Assembly: GCA_043779525.1 (NCBI GenBank)
Contig: JAYWED010000030.1
Coordinates: 3,431-67,430, forward strand
Direction: 5' to 3'
From: Candidatus Eiseniibacteriota bacterium
GTDB taxonomy: Bacteria > Eisenbacteria > RBG-16-71-46 > SZUA-252
Length of the DNA: 64,000 nucleotides
The notes under the pieces are model-generated. The model was not told where the DNA came from and searched no databases. It saw only the letters and a program-made list of their open reading frames with translations. Made by a program: the position numbers and the translations under genes. Of the stretch, positions 21,217 through 39,621 are shown piece by piece. Positions within the stretch are counted from its first letter, which is position 1. Every line of letters starts with the position of its first letter.

Positions 21217-21305
<89 letters not shown>

Positions 21306-21324: not shown

Positions 21325-22593
21325 TTGAAAGTCGACATTCGCGACCACGGATCCCCTTGGCGAAAGCTCCTCGTGATCGAGGTGCCTCCCGACGAGTTGG
21401 AGAGCGCCTTCCAGGACGTCGTCAAGGAGTTCCGCAGTCGTGTCCAGCTACCCGGCTTCAGGAAGGGGCACGCTCCGCGGAACGTGATCGAGCTCCAGTT
21501 CGGTCATTCCATGGAGCATGAGGTATTGGAGCGAGTGGTCAAACGCTCCTACGAGGCCGTCGTCCGCGACCAGAAGCTGGAGCCGATCTCCTACCCGACC
21601 ATCGAGAAGATCGAGTTCGCGCGCGGCAAGCCCCTCACGTATGAGGCGCAAATCGAAATCAAACCACAAGTTATCGCCAAGGATTACTTCGGCCTCGACG
21701 TGGACACCAAGGAAACCGAGGTCCAGGACGCCGACGTGGACAAAGCGCTGGAGGAGCTTCGCGAGCGCACCGCCGAGTGGACTCCGGTGGATCGCGAGGC
21801 GGGTGACTCGGATGCGGTCCTGGTCGATTACGTCAGGCTGAACGCGAAGGGAAAGCCGATCAGAAAGACCGAGCAGAAGGACGCGCTCGTGGAGCTTGGC
21901 GCGGGTGGTCTCCTGCCCGAGTTCCGGACGAATCTCGCAGGCGCCAAGGCTGGGGACCATCGCGACTTCCAGGTCACCTATCCGGCCGACTTCGGAAACG
22001 AGGAGCTCCGGGGGCAATCCTCGACTTTCTCCGTAGACGTGAGGGGTGTGCGGGAGCGGCGGATCCGCCCGCTCGATGACGAGTTCGCGAAGGAGATCGC
22101 CGGGATGAGGGATCTGGCCGAGCTTCGGGCCAGGGTCCGGCTGAACATGGAGAGCGAGGCCCGGGTCAAGGTCCAGCGGGAGCAGGAAGAGGCCCTGGCC
22201 GACCAGGTCATCGCCAAGAACCCGATGGAGCTGCCGGAATCGATGGTCCGCGAGTATCTGGAAGAGCTCCTCCAGCGTCTAAAGGGGGAAGGCCGGGAGT
22301 GGACCCCCGAAGAGGAGGAACGCTTCCGCGGCGAATATCGCCCTCTGGCGGAGCGACGCATCAAGAGGGACATACTCCTGGATTCCATCGCACGCGCCGA
22401 GTCGGTTGCCGTTACGGACGAGGAAATAGACCAAGCTTTGCGCGGCGCAGCGGAAGGGGAAGGGGCCCCACCGGAAACGGAGCGGGTGCTCCGGAGCCCC
22501 GAGCACCGGGACCGGGCGCGCGCGCATCTCACGGAGCGGAAGGTGTTCGGACTGCTCCGCGAGAAGGCCCGGCTTAAGATGGCCGTCGCCTAA
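21325..22593 (+). CDS. tig: trigger factor
   Basis: 422 aa, TTG start preceded by GGAGG. GFRKGHAPRNVIE motif and the conserved tig-clpP-clpX-lon order. Confidence 0.9.
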   Translation: MKVDIRDHGSPWRKLLVIEVPPDELESAFQDVVKEFRSRVQLPGFRKGHAPRNVIELQFGHSMEHEVLERVVKRSYEAVVRDQKLEPISYPTIEKIEFARGKPLTYEAQIEIKPQVIAKDYFGLDVDTKETEVQDADVDKALEELRERTAEWTPVDREAGDSDAVLVDYVRLNAKGKPIRKTEQKDALVELGAGGLLPEFRTNLAGAKAGDHRDFQVTYPADFGNEELRGQSSTFSVDVRGVRERRIRPLDDEFAKEIAGMRDLAELRARVRLNMESEARVKVQREQEEALADQVIAKNPMELPESMVREYLEELLQRLKGEGREWTPEEEERFRGEYRPLAERRIKRDILLDSIARAESVAVTDEEIDQALRGAAEGEGAPPETERVLRSPEHRDRARAHLTERKVFGLLREKARLKMAVA

Positions 22594-34048: not shown

Positions 34049-34100
34049 GCGGAGCGAAATCGCGGGCGGGGCGGCGAGTCGGCCGCTCCGCTTGTTTATC
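34049..34100 (+). terminator. possible terminator after the anti-sigma gene
   Basis: GCGGAGCG (34049-56) / CGCTCCGC (34084-91) enclose a structured GC-rich loop and are followed by TTGTTTAT. Confidence 0.35.
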
Positions 34101-34130
34101 CTCTCCATCCCGCGTAAACTCGCCGCTCCC

Positions 34131-35318
34131 ATGCTCAAAACATCCCCCTTCCATCCCAGGACCGCGCCTCTGGTGCGGACCCAGACGTGGCGCCGCTGGT
34201 CGGGATACCAGATGGCGAGCGCGTACGATCCGCATCCCGATCGCGAGTACGCCGCGATCCGGAGCGCGGCCGCGCTCATCGACATCTCGCCACTCTACAA
34301 GTACCGGATCGCGGGTCGCGATGCCTCACGGCTCCTCGACCGGATGATCACGCGGGACATGTCGAAGTTGAAGCCCGGGCAGGTCTACTACACACCCTGG
34401 TGCGACGGCGCCGGCAAGGTGGTCGACGATGGAACCGTGACGAACCTGGGCGGTGGAGCGTACCGCCTCACGAGCGCGGATTCCTCCCTGCGCTGGCTCC
34501 ACATGAACGCGGTCGGCATGGAGGTTTCGATCGAGGACATATCGGAGCGTGTCGGCGCGCTCTCGCTCCAGGGCCCGCTCTCCCGCGACATCCTCTCGCG
34601 GGCCGCCTCGGTCGATCTCTCCTCGCTCAAGTACTTCCGTATGATCGAGGGCGCGGTCCGGGGCATTCCGGTTGCCATTTCCCGCACGGGGTACACCGGC
34701 GATCTGGGGTACGAGATCTGGGTGGACGCCGCTCAGGCCGTGCCGCTCTGGGACGCGCTGATGGAAGAGGGGAAACCCTTCGGCCTGACGCCTACCGGTG
34801 TCTGGGCAATGGACATCGCGAGGATCGAGGCGGGGCTGATCATGCTGGACGTGGATTACTACTCGGCGCACCACGCGCTCATCGAGGCGCGCACGTCCAC
34901 GCCGCTGGAGATCAATCTCGGATGGGCGGTGAGCGCGGGGAAGGGACCCTTCAACGGCCGGCAGGCGCTTGCCGCGGAACGCGCGCGCGGCGCCGCGTGG
35001 GGCTTCGTGGGCCTCGAGGTGGATTGGGATTCCTTCGAGCGTCTCTTCCGCGCGCACGGACTGCCTCCACAGATTCCAAATATCGCGTGGCGCATGAGCG
35101 CACCCGTGTATCGTGAAGGTAAACAAATAGGTTACGCCACCAGCGGATGCTGGTCGCCGATCCTCAAGAAGTCCCTCGCGCTGGCGCACGTGCGCGCGCC
35201 GCACTTCGCGGCGGGCACCGCGGTGAAGCTCGAGGTGACGGTGGAGCATCGCCGCGAGGTCGCGGACGCGACGGTGCGGAAGCTTCCCTTCTTCGAGCCC
35301 GAGCGGAAGAAAGCATGA
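34131..35318 (+). CDS. GcvT-family aminomethyltransferase (folate-dependent C1 transferase)
   Basis: From ATG 34131 (MLKTSPFHPRT...). DISPLYKYRIAG, ISRTGYTGDLGYEIW and GLIMLDVDY are characteristic of the GcvT/DmdA family. Confidence 0.8.
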   Translation: MLKTSPFHPRTAPLVRTQTWRRWSGYQMASAYDPHPDREYAAIRSAAALIDISPLYKYRIAGRDASRLLDRMITRDMSKLKPGQVYYTPWCDGAGKVVDDGTVTNLGGGAYRLTSADSSLRWLHMNAVGMEVSIEDISERVGALSLQGPLSRDILSRAASVDLSSLKYFRMIEGAVRGIPVAISRTGYTGDLGYEIWVDAAQAVPLWDALMEEGKPFGLTPTGVWAMDIARIEAGLIMLDVDYYSAHHALIEARTSTPLEINLGWAVSAGKGPFNGRQALAAERARGAAWGFVGLEVDWDSFERLFRAHGLPPQIPNIAWRMSAPVYREGKQIGYATSGCWSPILKKSLALAHVRAPHFAAGTAVKLEVTVEHRREVADATVRKLPFFEPERKKA

Positions 35319-36901
35319 GCGCTGAGAAGCGTTACGACGCGATCGTGGTAGGCGGCGGGCACAACGGGCTCGTGGCCGCGGCCTATCTCGCGCGTGCGGG
35401 CCGGAAGACGCTGGTGCTCGAGCGCCGGCCGCTTCTCGGCGGCGCGGCCGTGACCGAGGAGGTGTTCCCGGGATTCAAGTTCTCGGTCTTCTCCTACGTC
35501 GTGAGTCTCCTCCGTCCGGAGATCATCCGGGACCTCGACTTGCCGAAGCACGGCCTCCAGATCCTGCCGTTCGAGAGCACGGTGACCCCGCTTAACAATG
35601 GCGACTACCTCGCGTCCTGGTCCGATCCCGACGAGACGCGCCGCGAGCTGTGCCGGCATTCCACGCGCGACGCCGACGCCTCGGCCGTGTTCGGGCGGCT
35701 CATGCATCACATGGCGATGGCGGTGAAACCCATCATCGGCATGGTGCCGCCGGACCCGACTTCGCTGTCGCTGGGCGATCTCGCGGGGCTCCTCAAACTG
35801 GGAGGGCATTTCCGCTCGCTCGGGCCGGAGCGGTTCCACGCGCTCCACAAGCTCATGACCATGAGCAGCGCGGACTATCTCGACGAGTGGTTCGAGTTCG
35901 ACGCCCTCAAGGCCACGAAATCGGCGAGCGGGATCATCGGCACGTTCCTGGGGCCGCGCTCGCCTGGGTCCGCCTACGTGCTCCTCCACCACTACATGGG
36001 CGAGATCGACGGGGCGTTCCGCGCCTGGGGATTCCAGAAGGGCGGCACCGGCGCCATCAGCGAGACCATCGCGAGCGCGGCTCGCGCCCACGGCGCCGAG
36101 CTCCGGACCGGCGCGGGGGTGGAGCGCGTGCTCGTGCGCGACGGCCGCGTGACCGGCGTGGCGCTCTCGACCGGCGAGGAGATCGCGGTCGGGCTCGTCA
36201 TCTCGGGCCTCGACCCGCGCCTCACCTTCACGCGCCTCGTGGACACCAAGGATCTTCCGGGTGATCTGGTCGAGGGCATCCGCCGCTACAAGTTCCGAGG
36301 CTCTTCGGGGAAGGTGAATCTCGCCCTCTCCGGCCTGCCCAGCTTCACCTGCATGCCGGGCGAGGGCCCGCACCTGCGCGGCGCGATGTCGATCAGCCCG
36401 AGCATCGAATATCTCGAGCGCGCGTACGACGACGCCAAGTACGGCGAGTTCTCCAAGAATCCGTACATGGACATCGTGATCCCCTCGATGATCGATCCAC
36501 AGATGGCGCCGCCGGGGAAACACGTCATGAGCATCTTCGTCCAGTACGCGCCCTATCACCTGAACGGCGGCTGGACCGACGCCAAGCGGGAGGCCTTCGG
36601 GGACGCGGTCGTGAATACGCTCGCCCGCTACGCGCCCAACATCAAGTCCCTGATCCTGCACCGGCAGGTGCTCACCCCCGACGACATCGAGCGGATCACC
36701 GGACTCTCCGAGGGGAACATCTTCCAGGGCGAGCTGGCGCTCCAGCAGCTCTTCTTCCTGCGCCCGGTGCCGGAGTGGGCCAAGTACCGCACACCCATCC
36801 ACGGCTACTGGCAGTGCGGCGCGGGGACCCATCCGGGTGGTGGGATCATGGGCGCCTCGGGAAGGCTCGCCGCGCTCGAGATCTTGAAGGCGGCCGCGTG
36901 A
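35315..36901 (+). CDS. FAD-dependent oxidoreductase, phytoene-desaturase-like (COG1233), paralog 1
   Basis: ATGA overlap with the upstream stop. YDAIVVGGGHNGLVAAAYLARAG dinucleotide fold and C-terminal GNIFQGEL...GAGTHPGGGIMG. Confidence 0.8.
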   Translation: MSAEKRYDAIVVGGGHNGLVAAAYLARAGRKTLVLERRPLLGGAAVTEEVFPGFKFSVFSYVVSLLRPEIIRDLDLPKHGLQILPFESTVTPLNNGDYLASWSDPDETRRELCRHSTRDADASAVFGRLMHHMAMAVKPIIGMVPPDPTSLSLGDLAGLLKLGGHFRSLGPERFHALHKLMTMSSADYLDEWFEFDALKATKSASGIIGTFLGPRSPGSAYVLLHHYMGEIDGAFRAWGFQKGGTGAISETIASAARAHGAELRTGAGVERVLVRDGRVTGVALSTGEEIAVGLVISGLDPRLTFTRLVDTKDLPGDLVEGIRRYKFRGSSGKVNLALSGLPSFTCMPGEGPHLRGAMSISPSIEYLERAYDDAKYGEFSKNPYMDIVIPSMIDPQMAPPGKHVMSIFVQYAPYHLNGGWTDAKREAFGDAVVNTLARYAPNIKSLILHRQVLTPDDIERITGLSEGNIFQGELALQQLFFLRPVPEWAKYRTPIHGYWQCGAGTHPGGGIMGASGRLAALEILKAAA

Positions 36902-38487
36902 GCGCGACGATCTACGACGCCATCGTCATCGGCGCGGGCGCCAACGGCCTCGTGGCCGCGGCGGGTCTCGCGCGCGCGGGCCAGCGCGTGCTCCTGCTGG
37001 AGCGCGACGCGGCGCTGGGGGGCCAGGGCCGCCTCGTCGAGTTCGCGCCCGGATTCCGCGCGGCGCCGCTGGGGCTGGATCCGGGCTGGCTGCCCGATTC
37101 CATCGCGACGGCCTTGGGGCTCACGGGACTGGCGCGCGCGACGACGGATGCCGGCGTCGCCGTCGTGACGGAGCCCGGCTTAGCACTCGCGCTCTCGCGC
37201 GACGCCGGTCGCGCCGCCGAGGCGATCGCGGTCCACTCGCGCGCCGATGCCGCGAAGTGGCCCGAGTTCACCGGGCGCATGAGAAAGCTCGCGGGATTCC
37301 TCGAGGCGCTTTACCAGACGCCGGCTCCAGACATCAGCGCGTCGTCCCTGAGCGAGCTAATCCCGCTCCTCGGCCTCGGAAAGAAATTCCGCGCGTTGGG
37401 CCGGCGCGACATGGTCGAGTTCCTGCGCACACTGCCCCTCTCGATATGGGAGCTTCTGGACGACTGGTTCGAGAGCGCGGCGTTGAAGGCCGCGGTCGCG
37501 CCGGGCGGCATCCAGGATCATCAGCAGGGGCCGCGCTCGGGCGGCACCGGCTTCGTGTTCCTGCACTATCTCGTCGGCGCCCCCGCGGGCGCCGTGCGCG
37601 GGCGCGCTCCGTGGCGGGACGGTCCGGAGGCCTTCACCCTCGCGGCCGAGGGCGCGGCCCGGCGGTTGGGCGTCACCATCCGCGCGGGCGCGACGGTGAA
37701 GCAGATCGCGGTCAAGGACGACGCGGTCGCGGGCGTGGTGCTGGAGGACGGCGAGGAGATCGTGGCGCGCGCGGTGCTATCGACCGCGAACCCGGCCCGC
37801 ACGCTTCTCGACTGGGTGGATCCGGTGTGGCTCGATCCCGAGTTCCTCCGCGAGGTCGGGAACATCCGCCATCGCGGGTGCGCCGCGGTGGTGGCGTATG
37901 CGCTGGAGCGGCTGCCCGACATCCCGGGGCTCCCGAGTGCCGACACGCTGGCGGGCATGATCTCGCTCACGCCCAGCATCCCCGCGCTCGAGAAGGCCGC
38001 CGATGCCGCCAAGTACGGCACGGTCTCGGAGCGCCCTCACGTGGAGTTCACGGTGCCCACGATCGTGGCGCCACAGCTGGCGACCAAGGGCCGGCACGTT
38101 CTCGTGGCGCGCGCGCAGTACGCGCCCTACCGGCTCCGCGAGGGCGCCGTCTGGGATGGCGCGCGCCGCGACGCGCTGGCGAAATCCGTGACCGCCGCGA
38201 TCGAGGCGGTCTCGCCATGCTTTTCCTCGCGAATCCTCCATCAGACGTCGTGGTCGCCGAGAGACCTCGAGGAGCAGTTCGGTCTACGCGAAGGGGCGGC
38301 GTCCCAGGGAGAGCTGGGGCTCGATCAGATTCTCTTCATGCGCCCGGTGGCCGGATGGGGAGGCCACACCACGCCGATCGCGGGCTTATACTTGGGGGGC
38401 GCGGGCAACCACCCCGGGCCCGGCGTTCTCGGCGGAGCGGGCTGGCTTGCCGCGCAGCGAATTCTCGGCGACCGCCGCCGCAAGTAG
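36898..38487 (+). CDS. FAD-dependent oxidoreductase, phytoene-desaturase-like (COG1233), paralog 2
   Basis: GTGA overlap with paralog 1. YDAIVIGAGANGLVAAAGLARAG and C-terminal SQGELGL...GAGNHPGPGVLG. Ends at TAG 38485-38487. Confidence 0.8.
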   Translation: MSATIYDAIVIGAGANGLVAAAGLARAGQRVLLLERDAALGGQGRLVEFAPGFRAAPLGLDPGWLPDSIATALGLTGLARATTDAGVAVVTEPGLALALSRDAGRAAEAIAVHSRADAAKWPEFTGRMRKLAGFLEALYQTPAPDISASSLSELIPLLGLGKKFRALGRRDMVEFLRTLPLSIWELLDDWFESAALKAAVAPGGIQDHQQGPRSGGTGFVFLHYLVGAPAGAVRGRAPWRDGPEAFTLAAEGAARRLGVTIRAGATVKQIAVKDDAVAGVVLEDGEEIVARAVLSTANPARTLLDWVDPVWLDPEFLREVGNIRHRGCAAVVAYALERLPDIPGLPSADTLAGMISLTPSIPALEKAADAAKYGTVSERPHVEFTVPTIVAPQLATKGRHVLVARAQYAPYRLREGAVWDGARRDALAKSVTAAIEAVSPCFSSRILHQTSWSPRDLEEQFGLREGAASQGELGLDQILFMRPVAGWGGHTTPIAGLYLGGAGNHPGPGVLGGAGWLAAQRILGDRRRK

Positions 38488-38496
38488 GGAAGGGCC

Positions 38497-39621
38497 ATCA
38501 CGACCTTTCACCGCACCACGACCAGCTACCAGCCGGGAGCGAGAACGCTTCCGCGCGAGCGCTACACTTCGGAGGCGATCCTGGCCGAGGAGCGCGAGCG
38601 CATCTTCGCGCGCGGGTGGAACTGCGTCGGCCGTGCCTCGGGGCTCGCGAATCCCGGCGATTTCATCACGCGCGAGATCGCCGGCGAATCGATCATCATC
38701 CTTCGCGACCGCGCGGAAGAGCTCCGCGCGTTCTTCAACGTCTGCCGCCACCGCGGCACGCGGCTCTGCCGCGAGGAGTCCGGGCGCTTCGGCGAGACCA
38801 TCCAGTGCTCCTACCACGCCTGGACCTACTCCATCGACGGCCGCCTCGTGGGCGCGCCCTCGATGCAGGAGGTCCCGGATTTCGACAAGGCGGATTATCC
38901 GCTCCACGAAGCCGGGCTCGCGGAGTGGGAGGGATTTCTCTTCGTCAACGTGGGGGAGAACCCGCCGCCGTTCGAGCAGGCATGGCGCCCGGTCCTGGAT
39001 CGATTCGCGCGGTACGACCTTCCGGGGCTTGCGGTGGGGCATCGCGTCGTCTACGACGTCCACGCCAACTGGAAGCTGGTGTTCCAGAATTACTCCGAGT
39101 GCCTTCATTGCCCCACGATCCATCCCAAGCTGGCGTCGGTGCTTCCGTACCAGAGCGGCGCGAACGATCTGACGGACGGGCCGTTCCTGGGCGGCTACAT
39201 GGAGATCAAGCCCCCGAACGAGAGCGCGACCATGAGCGGGCGCGCGTGCGGCAGGCTCGTGAGCGGCGCGCTGCCAGAGGAGGATCGGCACCGCGGGTTC
39301 TACTACACGCTGATGCCGAATCTGCTGCTGAGTCTCCACCCCGACTACGTGAACTACTACATGCTGACCCCGGTCGCCGTGGACCGGACGCTCGTCGAAT
39401 CCGAATGGCTCTTTCACCCCGACACGCTGGCGGATCCCAAGAACAACATCGCCGACGGGATCGAGTTCTGGGACCTCACGAACCGCCAGGACTGGGACAT
39501 CGTGGCGCAGAGCCAGCTCGGGATCGGCTCGCGCCGCTACGTCCCCGGCCCCTACTCGCCGCGCGAGAGCGTGCCCGCCGCGTGGGATCGGGAATATCTG
39601 AGGCTGATGGGGCGGGAGTGA
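38497..39621 (+). CDS. Rieske [2Fe-2S] non-haem-iron oxygenase alpha subunit (start non-canonical or unresolved)
   Basis: Same frame as the upstream gene. YTSEAILAEERERIFARGW, the Rieske motif CRHRG...CSYHAW (38743-38823) and the iron site NYSECLHCPTIHP. The first ATG/GTG/TTG in frame is GTG 38848, which lies after the Rieske ligands. ATC 38497 is the only near-cognate codon upstream of the conserved N-terminus. Confidence 0.7.
   Translation: MTTFHRTTTSYQPGARTLPRERYTSEAILAEERERIFARGWNCVGRASGLANPGDFITREIAGESIIILRDRAEELRAFFNVCRHRGTRLCREESGRFGETIQCSYHAWTYSIDGRLVGAPSMQEVPDFDKADYPLHEAGLAEWEGFLFVNVGENPPPFEQAWRPVLDRFARYDLPGLAVGHRVVYDVHANWKLVFQNYSECLHCPTIHPKLASVLPYQSGANDLTDGPFLGGYMEIKPPNESATMSGRACGRLVSGALPEEDRHRGFYYTLMPNLLLSLHPDYVNYYMLTPVAVDRTLVESEWLFHPDTLADPKNNIADGIEFWDLTNRQDWDIVAQSQLGIGSRRYVPGPYSPRESVPAAWDREYLRLMGRE

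Follow-up and report, generated by a model that had tools for sequence, protein, structure and literature searches.

An ATG-to-ATC substitution at the start of an otherwise intact Rieske oxygenase gene

How can a Rieske oxygenase be translated from a reading frame that offers no ordinary start codon ahead of its iron-sulphur ligands? This question is raised by a locus in a stretch of 64,000 nucleotides of DNA, referred to here as the window. According to an earlier sequence-only reading, the frame downstream of the TAG at 38485-38487 is free of ATG, GTG, TTG and stop codons up to the GTG at 38848, is shared with the FAD protein upstream, and yet encodes the conserved N-terminus and both Rieske ligand pairs, such that a fragment of 257 aa started at the GTG would lack the [2Fe-2S] centre. 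Re-reading of the coordinates bears out each of these points. The 120 codons that follow the TAG in the same frame contain none of the three start codons and no stop, ITTFHRTTTSYQPGARTLPRERYTSEAILAEERERIFARGW is read within them, the CRH and CSYH motifs are both situated upstream of 38848, and the flavoprotein gene (36898..38487) and the Rieske ORF are indeed in the same frame. Among the likely genes of the window, solely the Rieske ORF has more than 64 codons between its upstream stop and its first canonical start, and a naive estimate based on the codon usage of the window puts the chance of such a start-free N-terminal stretch at ~6e-4. Among 162 orthologues, in-frame ATG, GTG or TTG codons within codons 2-117 are absent from 6 and number a single one in 19, and by this comparison a start-free N-terminal stretch is not exceptional for the Rieske family. 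What is truly anomalous therefore comes down to a single base, the C at position 38499 where the relatives read G.

The protein encoded by the start-free frame contains a Pfam Rieske domain (PF00355, residues 41-129, 2.4e-18), in which the CXH...CXXH ligands are represented by CRH (residues 83-85) and CSYH (residues 104-107), and a C-terminal Ring_hydroxyl_A/SRPBCC catalytic domain with its His ligands (PF00848, residues 178-371, 4.5e-40); the segment ECLHCPTIHP is invariant in 24 sequences. The combination of Rieske and Ring_hydroxyl_A domains is shared with GbcA, the stachydrine demethylase Stc2 (PDB entry 3vca), PDB entry 4qup and the carnitine monooxygenase CntA (PDB entry 6y8j), and the nearest PDB entries are 3n0q, 3vca, 4qup and 6y8j. 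The NCBIfam model of GbcA (NF058607) is matched with 1.5e-60. Because the score of 204.8 bits is far under the curated equivalog cut-off of 670, the protein appears to be related to GbcA without being GbcA itself, and it can be assigned to a GbcA/Stc2/CntA-like group, with matches to these proteins mainly over the N-terminal ~200 residues of the window protein.

By its gene order, the Rieske oxygenase is encoded by the last gene of a conserved four-gene cassette, following a GcvT-like gene and two genes for CrtI-like flavoproteins (Table 1). The synteny of the cassette is shared with three related loci (L001, L002 and L004). The TGA of the GcvT-like gene overlaps the ATG of the next gene (ATGA, 35315-35318), and the TGA of the first flavoprotein gene overlaps the GTG of the second (GTGA, 36898-36901). 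The first flavoprotein matches the NCBIfam crtI_fam model below its cut-off, and its orthologue in L002 is 528 aa long. The oxygenase is of the alpha-only type, with no beta-subunit gene adjacent to it and a folate-dependent GcvT-like protein among its neighbours, and its two CrtI-like flavoprotein partners differ from the known GbcAB or CntAB arrangement.

Table 1. Features of the cassette and of the flavoprotein-Rieske junction (positions in the window).
Feature	Position	Strand	Details	Basis
GcvT-like aminomethyltransferase	34092..35318	+	first cassette gene	Pfam GCV_T 1.1e-62, GCV_T_C
First CrtI/phytoene-desaturase-like FAD oxidoreductase	35315..36901	+	528 aa if from ATG 35315	Pfam Amino_oxidase, NAD_binding_8
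Second CrtI-like FAD oxidoreductase	36898..38487	+	529 aa, GTG 36898 start	Pfam/NCBIfam
TAG	38485..38487	+	ordinary flavoprotein stop	relatives' stops; TAG usage in window
Purine-rich SD-like tract GGGAAGGG	38487..38494	+	in 9-nt spacer	predicted duplex
ATC in place of ancestral ATG	38497..38499	+	G->C at 38499; proposed weak start	orthologue alignment
Rieske non-haem-iron oxygenase alpha-subunit gene	38497..39621	+	374 codons + TGA	Pfam Rieske + Ring_hydroxyl_A
GGAGG (38571-38575) then near-cognate CTG 38581	38571..38583	+	possible minor internal start	predicted duplex
Rieske [2Fe-2S] ligand motifs	38743..38817	+	CRH 38743-38751, CSYH 38806-38817	columns invariant in alignment A1
GTG, first canonical start of Rieske frame	38848..38850	+	ORF-finder choice, not real start	

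Alignment of the orthologous loci places the near-cognate ATC at 38497 exactly at the orthologous start position. In 23 aligned homologues a methionine, replaced by valine in one of them, is located precisely at the isoleucine of the window protein. The codon at this position in 146 distinct related junctions is ATG in 128 and GTG in 18, with no near-cognate codon in any of them, and the ATC is a singleton among the 147 junctions that include the window. The nearest relative, L002, reads TAG-GGAAGCGAC-ATG where the window reads TAG-GGAAGGGCC-ATC, with an identical TAG and a 9-nt spacer in both. The comparison indicates that a single G->C change at 38499 turned an ancestral ATG start into ATC. 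The alignment had been proposed as a check on whether the orthologous genes are fused, separated by a stop or provided with a normal start; it reveals no fusion, and separate genes that start with ATG or GTG. Four explanations had been put forward, namely initiation at the ATC after termination, read-through of the TAG, a nonsense mutation in an ancestral fusion and a base-call error, and they fare unequally. Initiation at the ATC is best supported, by the exact orthologous start position, the purine tract and the stop 9 nt upstream, while the two explanations that involve a fusion find no support and an error is disfavoured. The simplest description, an ATG->ATC point substitution with recent start-loss as its natural rival, is missing from these four.

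Apart from its start codon, the Rieske gene is intact and shows no decay. Neither disabling lesions nor relaxed selection are observed in it; the ORF has no frameshift or stop, and none of the 117 alignment columns with at least 97% conservation is violated in the window protein. Comparison with L002 yields a dN/dS of 0.046 at a dS of 0.37, and the polarised synonymous and non-synonymous changes are in a ratio of 19:4 on the window branch and 25:4 on the L002 branch. Strong purifying selection acts on the 5' 351 nt of the gene, and the 6 changes that separate codons 2-28 from those of L002 are all synonymous. These selection figures fit a functional gene and a freshly lost gene alike.

To what extent the ATC may be used as a start depends on the signals that surround it. 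The SD-like tract in the spacer is predicted to form a duplex of -8.5 kcal/mol with the canonical anti-SD, which is assumed for this organism, and is situated ~2-3 nt from the ATC, a distance below the usual optimum. The equivalent duplexes in close relatives range from -0.8 to -8.3 kcal/mol, that of the window being the strongest, and a GGGAA/GGAAGG motif recurs 5' of the start in the relatives. The RNA at the junction has no significant fold (z = -0.63), and a search for RNA runs containing the Rieske gene found none. The stop-to-start distance of 9 nt is short enough for translational coupling, in which termination-reinitiation needs an overlap or a very short spacer and is nearly lost at ~20 nt (PMC10666635). 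Initiation at AUC in E. coli reaches 1-2% of that at AUG and yields a protein with an N-terminal Met (bioRxiv 10.1101/063800). The cassette resembles the coupled gene pairs described by Huber et al. in 2019 and 2023 (PMC6728339, PMC10666635) in its -4 overlaps (ATGA and GTGA), the spacer in the window is within the working range, and 65/105 orthologous flavoprotein-Rieske junctions have the 4-nt (-4) overlap. The described cases of coupling restart at canonical codons, whereas the start in the window is AUC, for which a rescue by coupling is putative.

From these comparisons, it is reasonably probable that a single G->C start change in a separate and intact gene is accompanied by weak initiation at the ATC, giving a protein of 374 aa. 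The initiator tRNA would start inefficiently at the near-cognate AUC, aided by the SD-like tract and by ribosomes that terminate 9 nt upstream, through translational coupling or re-initiation. In this way the normal 374-aa product would still be made, and the allele would be a hypomorph; neither a fusion nor recoding would be involved, and the gene would not be dead. The oxygenase is probably still produced at a low level. We tentatively put forward the possibility that this uncultured Eisenbacteria-like lineage uses AUC as a working start, with useful expression via re-initiation 9 nt after the stop.

The main rival to weak initiation at the ATC is a recent start-loss, in which the ATG->ATC change effectively abolishes the oxygenase and leaves a nascent pseudogene or null allele that is too young for decay. 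This would agree with the uniqueness of the ATC among the 147 junctions, the low yield from AUC in E. coli and the suboptimal SD spacing; in addition, all ATC-bearing contigs are identical in sequence, such that the allele may be very young. As in bacterial start-loss variants and nascent pseudogenes, a non-essential catabolic gene has lost its canonical start through one substitution. Unlike start-loss pseudogenes, however, the window gene has no accompanying lesions or relaxed selection on its branch: no second lesion is present, the highly conserved columns are free of violations, and the excess of synonymous changes is similar to that of the sister branch. The ATC is, moreover, the consensus in three metagenome runs from two studies, and the remaining operon is intact. 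On balance we regard a complete loss of expression as somewhat unlikely, although it is to be taken seriously. Some of these observations also count against initiation at the ATC: E. coli initiates very poorly at AUC, the ATC is not conserved by selection, with no near-cognate codon at any related junction, and it could be very recent, mildly deleterious or inactivating.

Internal initiation at the near-cognate CTG 38581 would yield a protein of 346 aa that lacks the first 28 residues and keeps the Rieske centre. The GGAGG ahead of it forms a predicted duplex of -9.5 kcal/mol with the canonical anti-SD, again assumed, at a spacer of 4-5 nt, a better geometry than that of ATC 38497, and CUG belongs to the same 1-2% initiation class as AUC in E. 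coli (bioRxiv 10.1101/063800). The first 28 residues are, however, strongly conserved in the orthologues and show no non-synonymous difference from L002, and are therefore part of the functional protein. Furthermore, the GGAGG and the CTG appear as by-products of the S-E-A-I-L codons, which vary at synonymous sites in the relatives. As the origin of the product, this internal start is quite improbable.

A single-base departure from all relatives resembles an error of sequencing or assembly, with G as the true base at 38499. To judge the authenticity of the base, the contigs of 8 metagenome runs were compared at the junction. The exact ATC junction is found in independent Logan contigs of 3 runs (X1, X2 and X5) from two studies. 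The contigs of X1 (13.7x k-mer depth) and X2 (12.5x) have 0 differences from the window over 38200-38800, and in X5, which belongs to a different study, a 151-nt unitig at 2.7x k-mer depth is identical over 38393-38543. Two further runs (X6 and X7) contain more distant relatives that span the site, and both read G at 38499. A search of X3, X4 and X5 for diverged strains with the ATC yielded just window-identical unitigs at 2-3x, and those of X3 and X4 miss the junction. The C at 38499 is real, not an error, because independent contigs of three runs and two studies reproduce the junction with flanks free of differences, and the base-call error considered in the sequence-only reading is very improbable.

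Still more remote is a flavoprotein-Rieske protein of ~907 aa, produced by read-through of the TAG or, as another of the earlier proposals had it, recently broken as an ancestral fusion by a nonsense mutation. Such a protein would be in keeping with the shared frame, the absence of a stop from the TAG to the body of the Rieske protein and the CAG that L001 has at the position of the TAG; in L001, however, the flavoprotein and Rieske genes overlap by ATGA and are read in different frames. The position aligned with the TAG is occupied by TAG in L002 and L003/L006 and by TAA in L004, and L008 has a TAG one codon earlier; the spacers between the flavoprotein and Rieske genes of the nearest relatives measure 8, 9, 12 and 13 nt. 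The in-frame arrangement is not conserved, being found in just 9/105 junctions. The exact 529-aa flavoprotein is present in the public protein collection, and a protein with 92% identity to it (P0121) is likewise 529 aa long and ends at a TAG. The 907-aa read-through protein, with the TAG read as Q, was used as a query against 5.8 billion proteins, with 8000 candidates scored, and no fused homologue is found in the best 120 matches, which are all flavoproteins of 519-557 aa. No sign of TAG reassignment is seen within the window, where TAG is frequent as a stop and ends many likely genes, nor is a suppressor or Pyl tRNA, the sole tRNA there being Leu(tag). In the light of the relatives, the TAG is the normal stop of the flavoprotein, the shared frame is incidental to the 9-nt spacer, and the Rieske oxygenase is encoded by a separate gene, not by a fusion or a recoding event.

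Initiation at GTG 38848, the first canonical start of the frame, which would give the 257-aa catalytic-domain fragment reported by ORF finders, is rejected as practically negligible, since its product lacks both Rieske ligand pairs, it has essentially no SD (-2.1 kcal/mol, canonical anti-SD assumed), the homologues listed are 357-383 aa and nearly all 373-380 aa long, and purifying selection on the 5' 351 nt is strong.

Natural near-cognate starts in bacteria include AUU, from which infC and pcnB are initiated in E. coli, besides rare annotated ATC, ATT, ATA and CTG codons. In infC, the AUU is a conserved element of the autoregulation exerted through IF3. In common with infC and pcnB, the window has a near-cognate AUH codon at the start of a conserved gene, with an SD-like tract upstream. 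In contrast to the AUU of infC, the ATC is confined to one of the 147 junctions and has no evident regulatory role, and initiation at it is putative. If the ATC start is functional, the very short list of genes naturally initiated at AUC would gain a member, and the locus would allow the tolerance of translational coupling for near-cognate starts to be tested; if it is not, the locus simply captures a gene just as its start is lost. The understanding of translation and of Rieske oxygenases is unchanged by either outcome, and the ATC start is a small, ordinary oddity.

The chief value of the locus lies in annotation, as standard gene callers cannot place the Rieske gene. They miss its start, and a complete, conserved oxygenase therefore drops out of the protein catalogues; coupled AUC initiation, if true, would be a natural example that standard gene callers miss systematically. 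Neither the Met-started 374-aa version nor the 257-aa version of the Rieske protein is present in the public protein collection. On the matching public contig, the callers give a spurious antisense ORF of 79 aa and a truncated fragment.

The Rieske oxygenase gene of the window is a normal operon gene with a single-nucleotide substitution in its start codon. The junction with the upstream gene reads ...CGC CGC AAG TAG GGA AGG GCC ATC ACG ACC TTT CAC..., in which TAG (38485-38487) ends the flavoprotein FAD2, a CrtI/phytoene-desaturase-like FAD protein of 529 aa whose frame (GTG 36898 to TAG 38487) is also that of the Rieske ORF. From this TAG up to GTG 38848 the Rieske frame contains no ATG, GTG, TTG or stop codon, and near-cognate codons occur there only as ATC (at 38497 and ten other sites) and as CTG 38581. 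The frame translates to ITTFHRTTTSYQPGARTLPRERYTSEAILAEERERIFARGW and includes the ligand motifs CRH (38743-38751) and CSYH (38806-38817); Pfam assigns Rieske and Ring_hydroxyl_A domains to the frame. The sequence-only reading had described this start-free frame correctly throughout. In no other likely gene of the window does the distance from the upstream stop to the first canonical start exceed 64 codons.

The gene closes a conserved four-gene cassette encoding a GcvT-like aminomethyltransferase, two paralogous CrtI/phytoene-desaturase-like FAD oxidoreductases (FAD1 and FAD2) and a GbcA/Stc2/CntA-like Rieske oxygenase, joined mainly by 4-nt overlaps. The full gene order of the window (34092-39621) is found in three Eisenbacteria-like loci (L001, 1636-7125; L002, 1234-6433; L004, 572-6063), and the flavoprotein-Rieske pair recurs in MAGs labelled Eisenbacteria, Gemmatimonadota and others. 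The protein is a Rieske alpha subunit, and the group closest to it is that of the N-demethylases or quaternary-amine monooxygenases GbcA, Stc2 and CntA, though it scores well below the GbcA equivalog cut-off; the nearest PDB entries are 3n0q, 3vca, 4qup and 6y8j. The gene content points to an oxidative, folate-linked route for demethylating a methylated amine.

Genes of the cassette and their junctions (window coordinates)
Gene	Position	Order and junction
GcvT-like gene	34092-35318	first gene
FAD1	35315-36901	second gene; joined to GcvT-like gene by ATGA overlap
FAD2	36898-38487	third gene; joined to FAD1 by GTGA overlap
Rieske gene	38497-39621	fourth gene; last junction a 9-nt spacer containing GGGAAGGG

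Related loci (n=160) were fetched from genome and metagenome contigs, mainly MAGs labelled Candidatus Eisenbacteria and next Gemmatimonadota, and the codon aligned to residue 1 was read in 146 distinct junctions. It is ATG in 128 and GTG in 18, at the residue-1 position or within a few codons, and a near-cognate codon in none of the 146. Homologue N-termini coincide with the window's Ile in all 23 aligned cases (MTTFHRTTT, once VTSFHRTTE, versus ITTFHRTTT), and a start at 38497 gives 374 aa, the commonest length among the best 120 homologues (357-383 aa, the majority exactly 374). In the nearest locus, L002 (flavoprotein 92% and partial Rieske protein 97% identical), the junction is CGG TAG GGAAGCGAC ATG ACG ACC TTT CAC; TAG, the 9-nt spacer and frame equal those of the window, with ATG in place of ATC. 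Since relatives carry ATG or GTG at this codon, the anomaly is one base, G to C at 38499. Canonical codons do not protect this family from start mis-calls: in L003 (3818-3882) the gene caller starts at an internal ATG (3882), with the orthologous ATG 3832 present.

The C at 38499 is a real base, as observed in assembled contigs of three runs; the check rests on Logan per-run contigs and unitigs. Contigs of X1 (13.7x) and X2 (12.5x), two samples of one sediment study, show zero differences from window 38200-38800, and X5, from freshwater sediment in another study, contributes a unitig of 151 nt that is identical over 38393-38543. A junction-only query matched the same three runs again, and the public contig L166 reads AAGTAGGGAAGGGCCATCACG at the junction. 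The soil runs X6 and X7 have G at 38499, in more distant relatives. The agreement of assemblies from two studies disfavours a base-call error.

Read-through of the TAG and a broken ancestral fusion, also proposed from sequence, were not borne out. Among 105 distinct flavoprotein-Rieske junctions, 65 have a -4 overlap, about 25 a spacer of 1-16 nt, and only nine are in frame; the flavoprotein stops are TGA (81), TAG (19) and TAA (5). Related loci have TAG plus 12 nt (L003/L006), TAG plus 8 nt (L008) or TAA plus 13 nt (L004), and L001 has CAG at the TAG position, its flavoprotein ending five codons later in an ATGA overlap. The best 120 matches to the 907-aa read-through product include no fused homologue, all being separate flavoproteins of 519-557 aa, which counts against a fusion because a true one would outscore them. 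TAG is also the stop of many likely genes within the window, and with the varied stops and spacing this leaves both proposals unsupported; TAG 38485-38487 is an ordinary stop codon. The window has a single tRNA gene (21221-21305), a tRNA-Leu whose anticodon is TAG, directly upstream of a 422-codon ORF (21325-22593).

The coding sequence itself is intact. Of the alignment columns, 117 show at least 97% conservation across 82 other orthologues, and the window protein violates none of them (family median 0, maximum 4). Against L002, dN/dS is 0.046 (dS 0.37), as low as for any relative pair, and polarisation with five outgroups places 19 synonymous and 4 non-synonymous changes on the window branch and 25 and 4 on that of L002. 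These substitution patterns indicate that purifying selection acted on the gene throughout essentially its whole separate history; the start change is either very recent or one that does not abolish function.

Of the explanations offered by the sequence-only reading, initiation at ATC 38497 fares best: its position is that of the orthologous start, and initiation there is what we infer, which makes this codon a candidate for a natural AUC start. Initiation in E. coli from AUC, AUA, AUU or CUG runs at 1-2% of the AUG level, and an AUC-started product bears N-terminal Met by mass spectrometry (10.1101/063800); termination-reinitiation coupling operates where genes overlap or are separated by a very short spacer, and little of it is left at ~20 nt (PMC10666635). 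AUC 38497 would be used, with fMet, either by ribosomes that have just completed the flavoprotein at the TAG or by 30S subunits that the purine tract brings in, and the usual 374-aa oxygenase would be made in smaller amounts. The tract lies 2-3 nt from the ATC, a short spacer, and its predicted duplex with the canonical anti-SD, assumed for this organism, is the strongest among close relatives (-8.5 kcal/mol); no significant local RNA structure was found at the junction.

The main rival is that the ATC allele is in effect a null one that arose only recently, with which the sequence identity of all ATC-carrying strains agrees; owing to this identity the allele cannot be dated. A minor one places initiation at CTG 38581, in frame and 5 nt downstream of a perfect in-coding GGAGG (codons S-E-A; the two together span 38571-38583), with a predicted duplex of -9.5 kcal/mol and a 4-5 nt spacer; however, residues 1-28 are conserved, and the 27 codons from ATC 38497 to this CTG differ from L002 by six synonymous and no non-synonymous changes. 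The GGAGG varies at synonymous sites in relatives, and the element could be an internal ribosome pause or weak start site. The rare natural near-cognate starts include the AUU codons of infC and pcnB. Like these, the window ATC occupies the start position; unlike regulatory non-canonical starts it is not conserved, and it compares equally with ordinary start-loss variants.

The import of the start-codon substitution is mainly for annotation, as gene callers lose the gene. A 15-billion-protein collection contains this organism's Rieske protein in neither its 374-aa nor its 257-aa form. In L166, which is identical to this region of the window, a 79-aa antisense ORF, which is spurious, was called within the Rieske N-terminal region (1851-2090, window 38562-38801, - strand), followed by a truncated + strand ORF. 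The CRHRG Rieske-motif codons (38725-38769) are nearly exactly common to many other Rieske genes of the community; k-mer depth there rises from ~13x to 200-350x in sediment metagenomes and many contigs diverge to either side, making this segment a likely hotspot for chimeric assembly.
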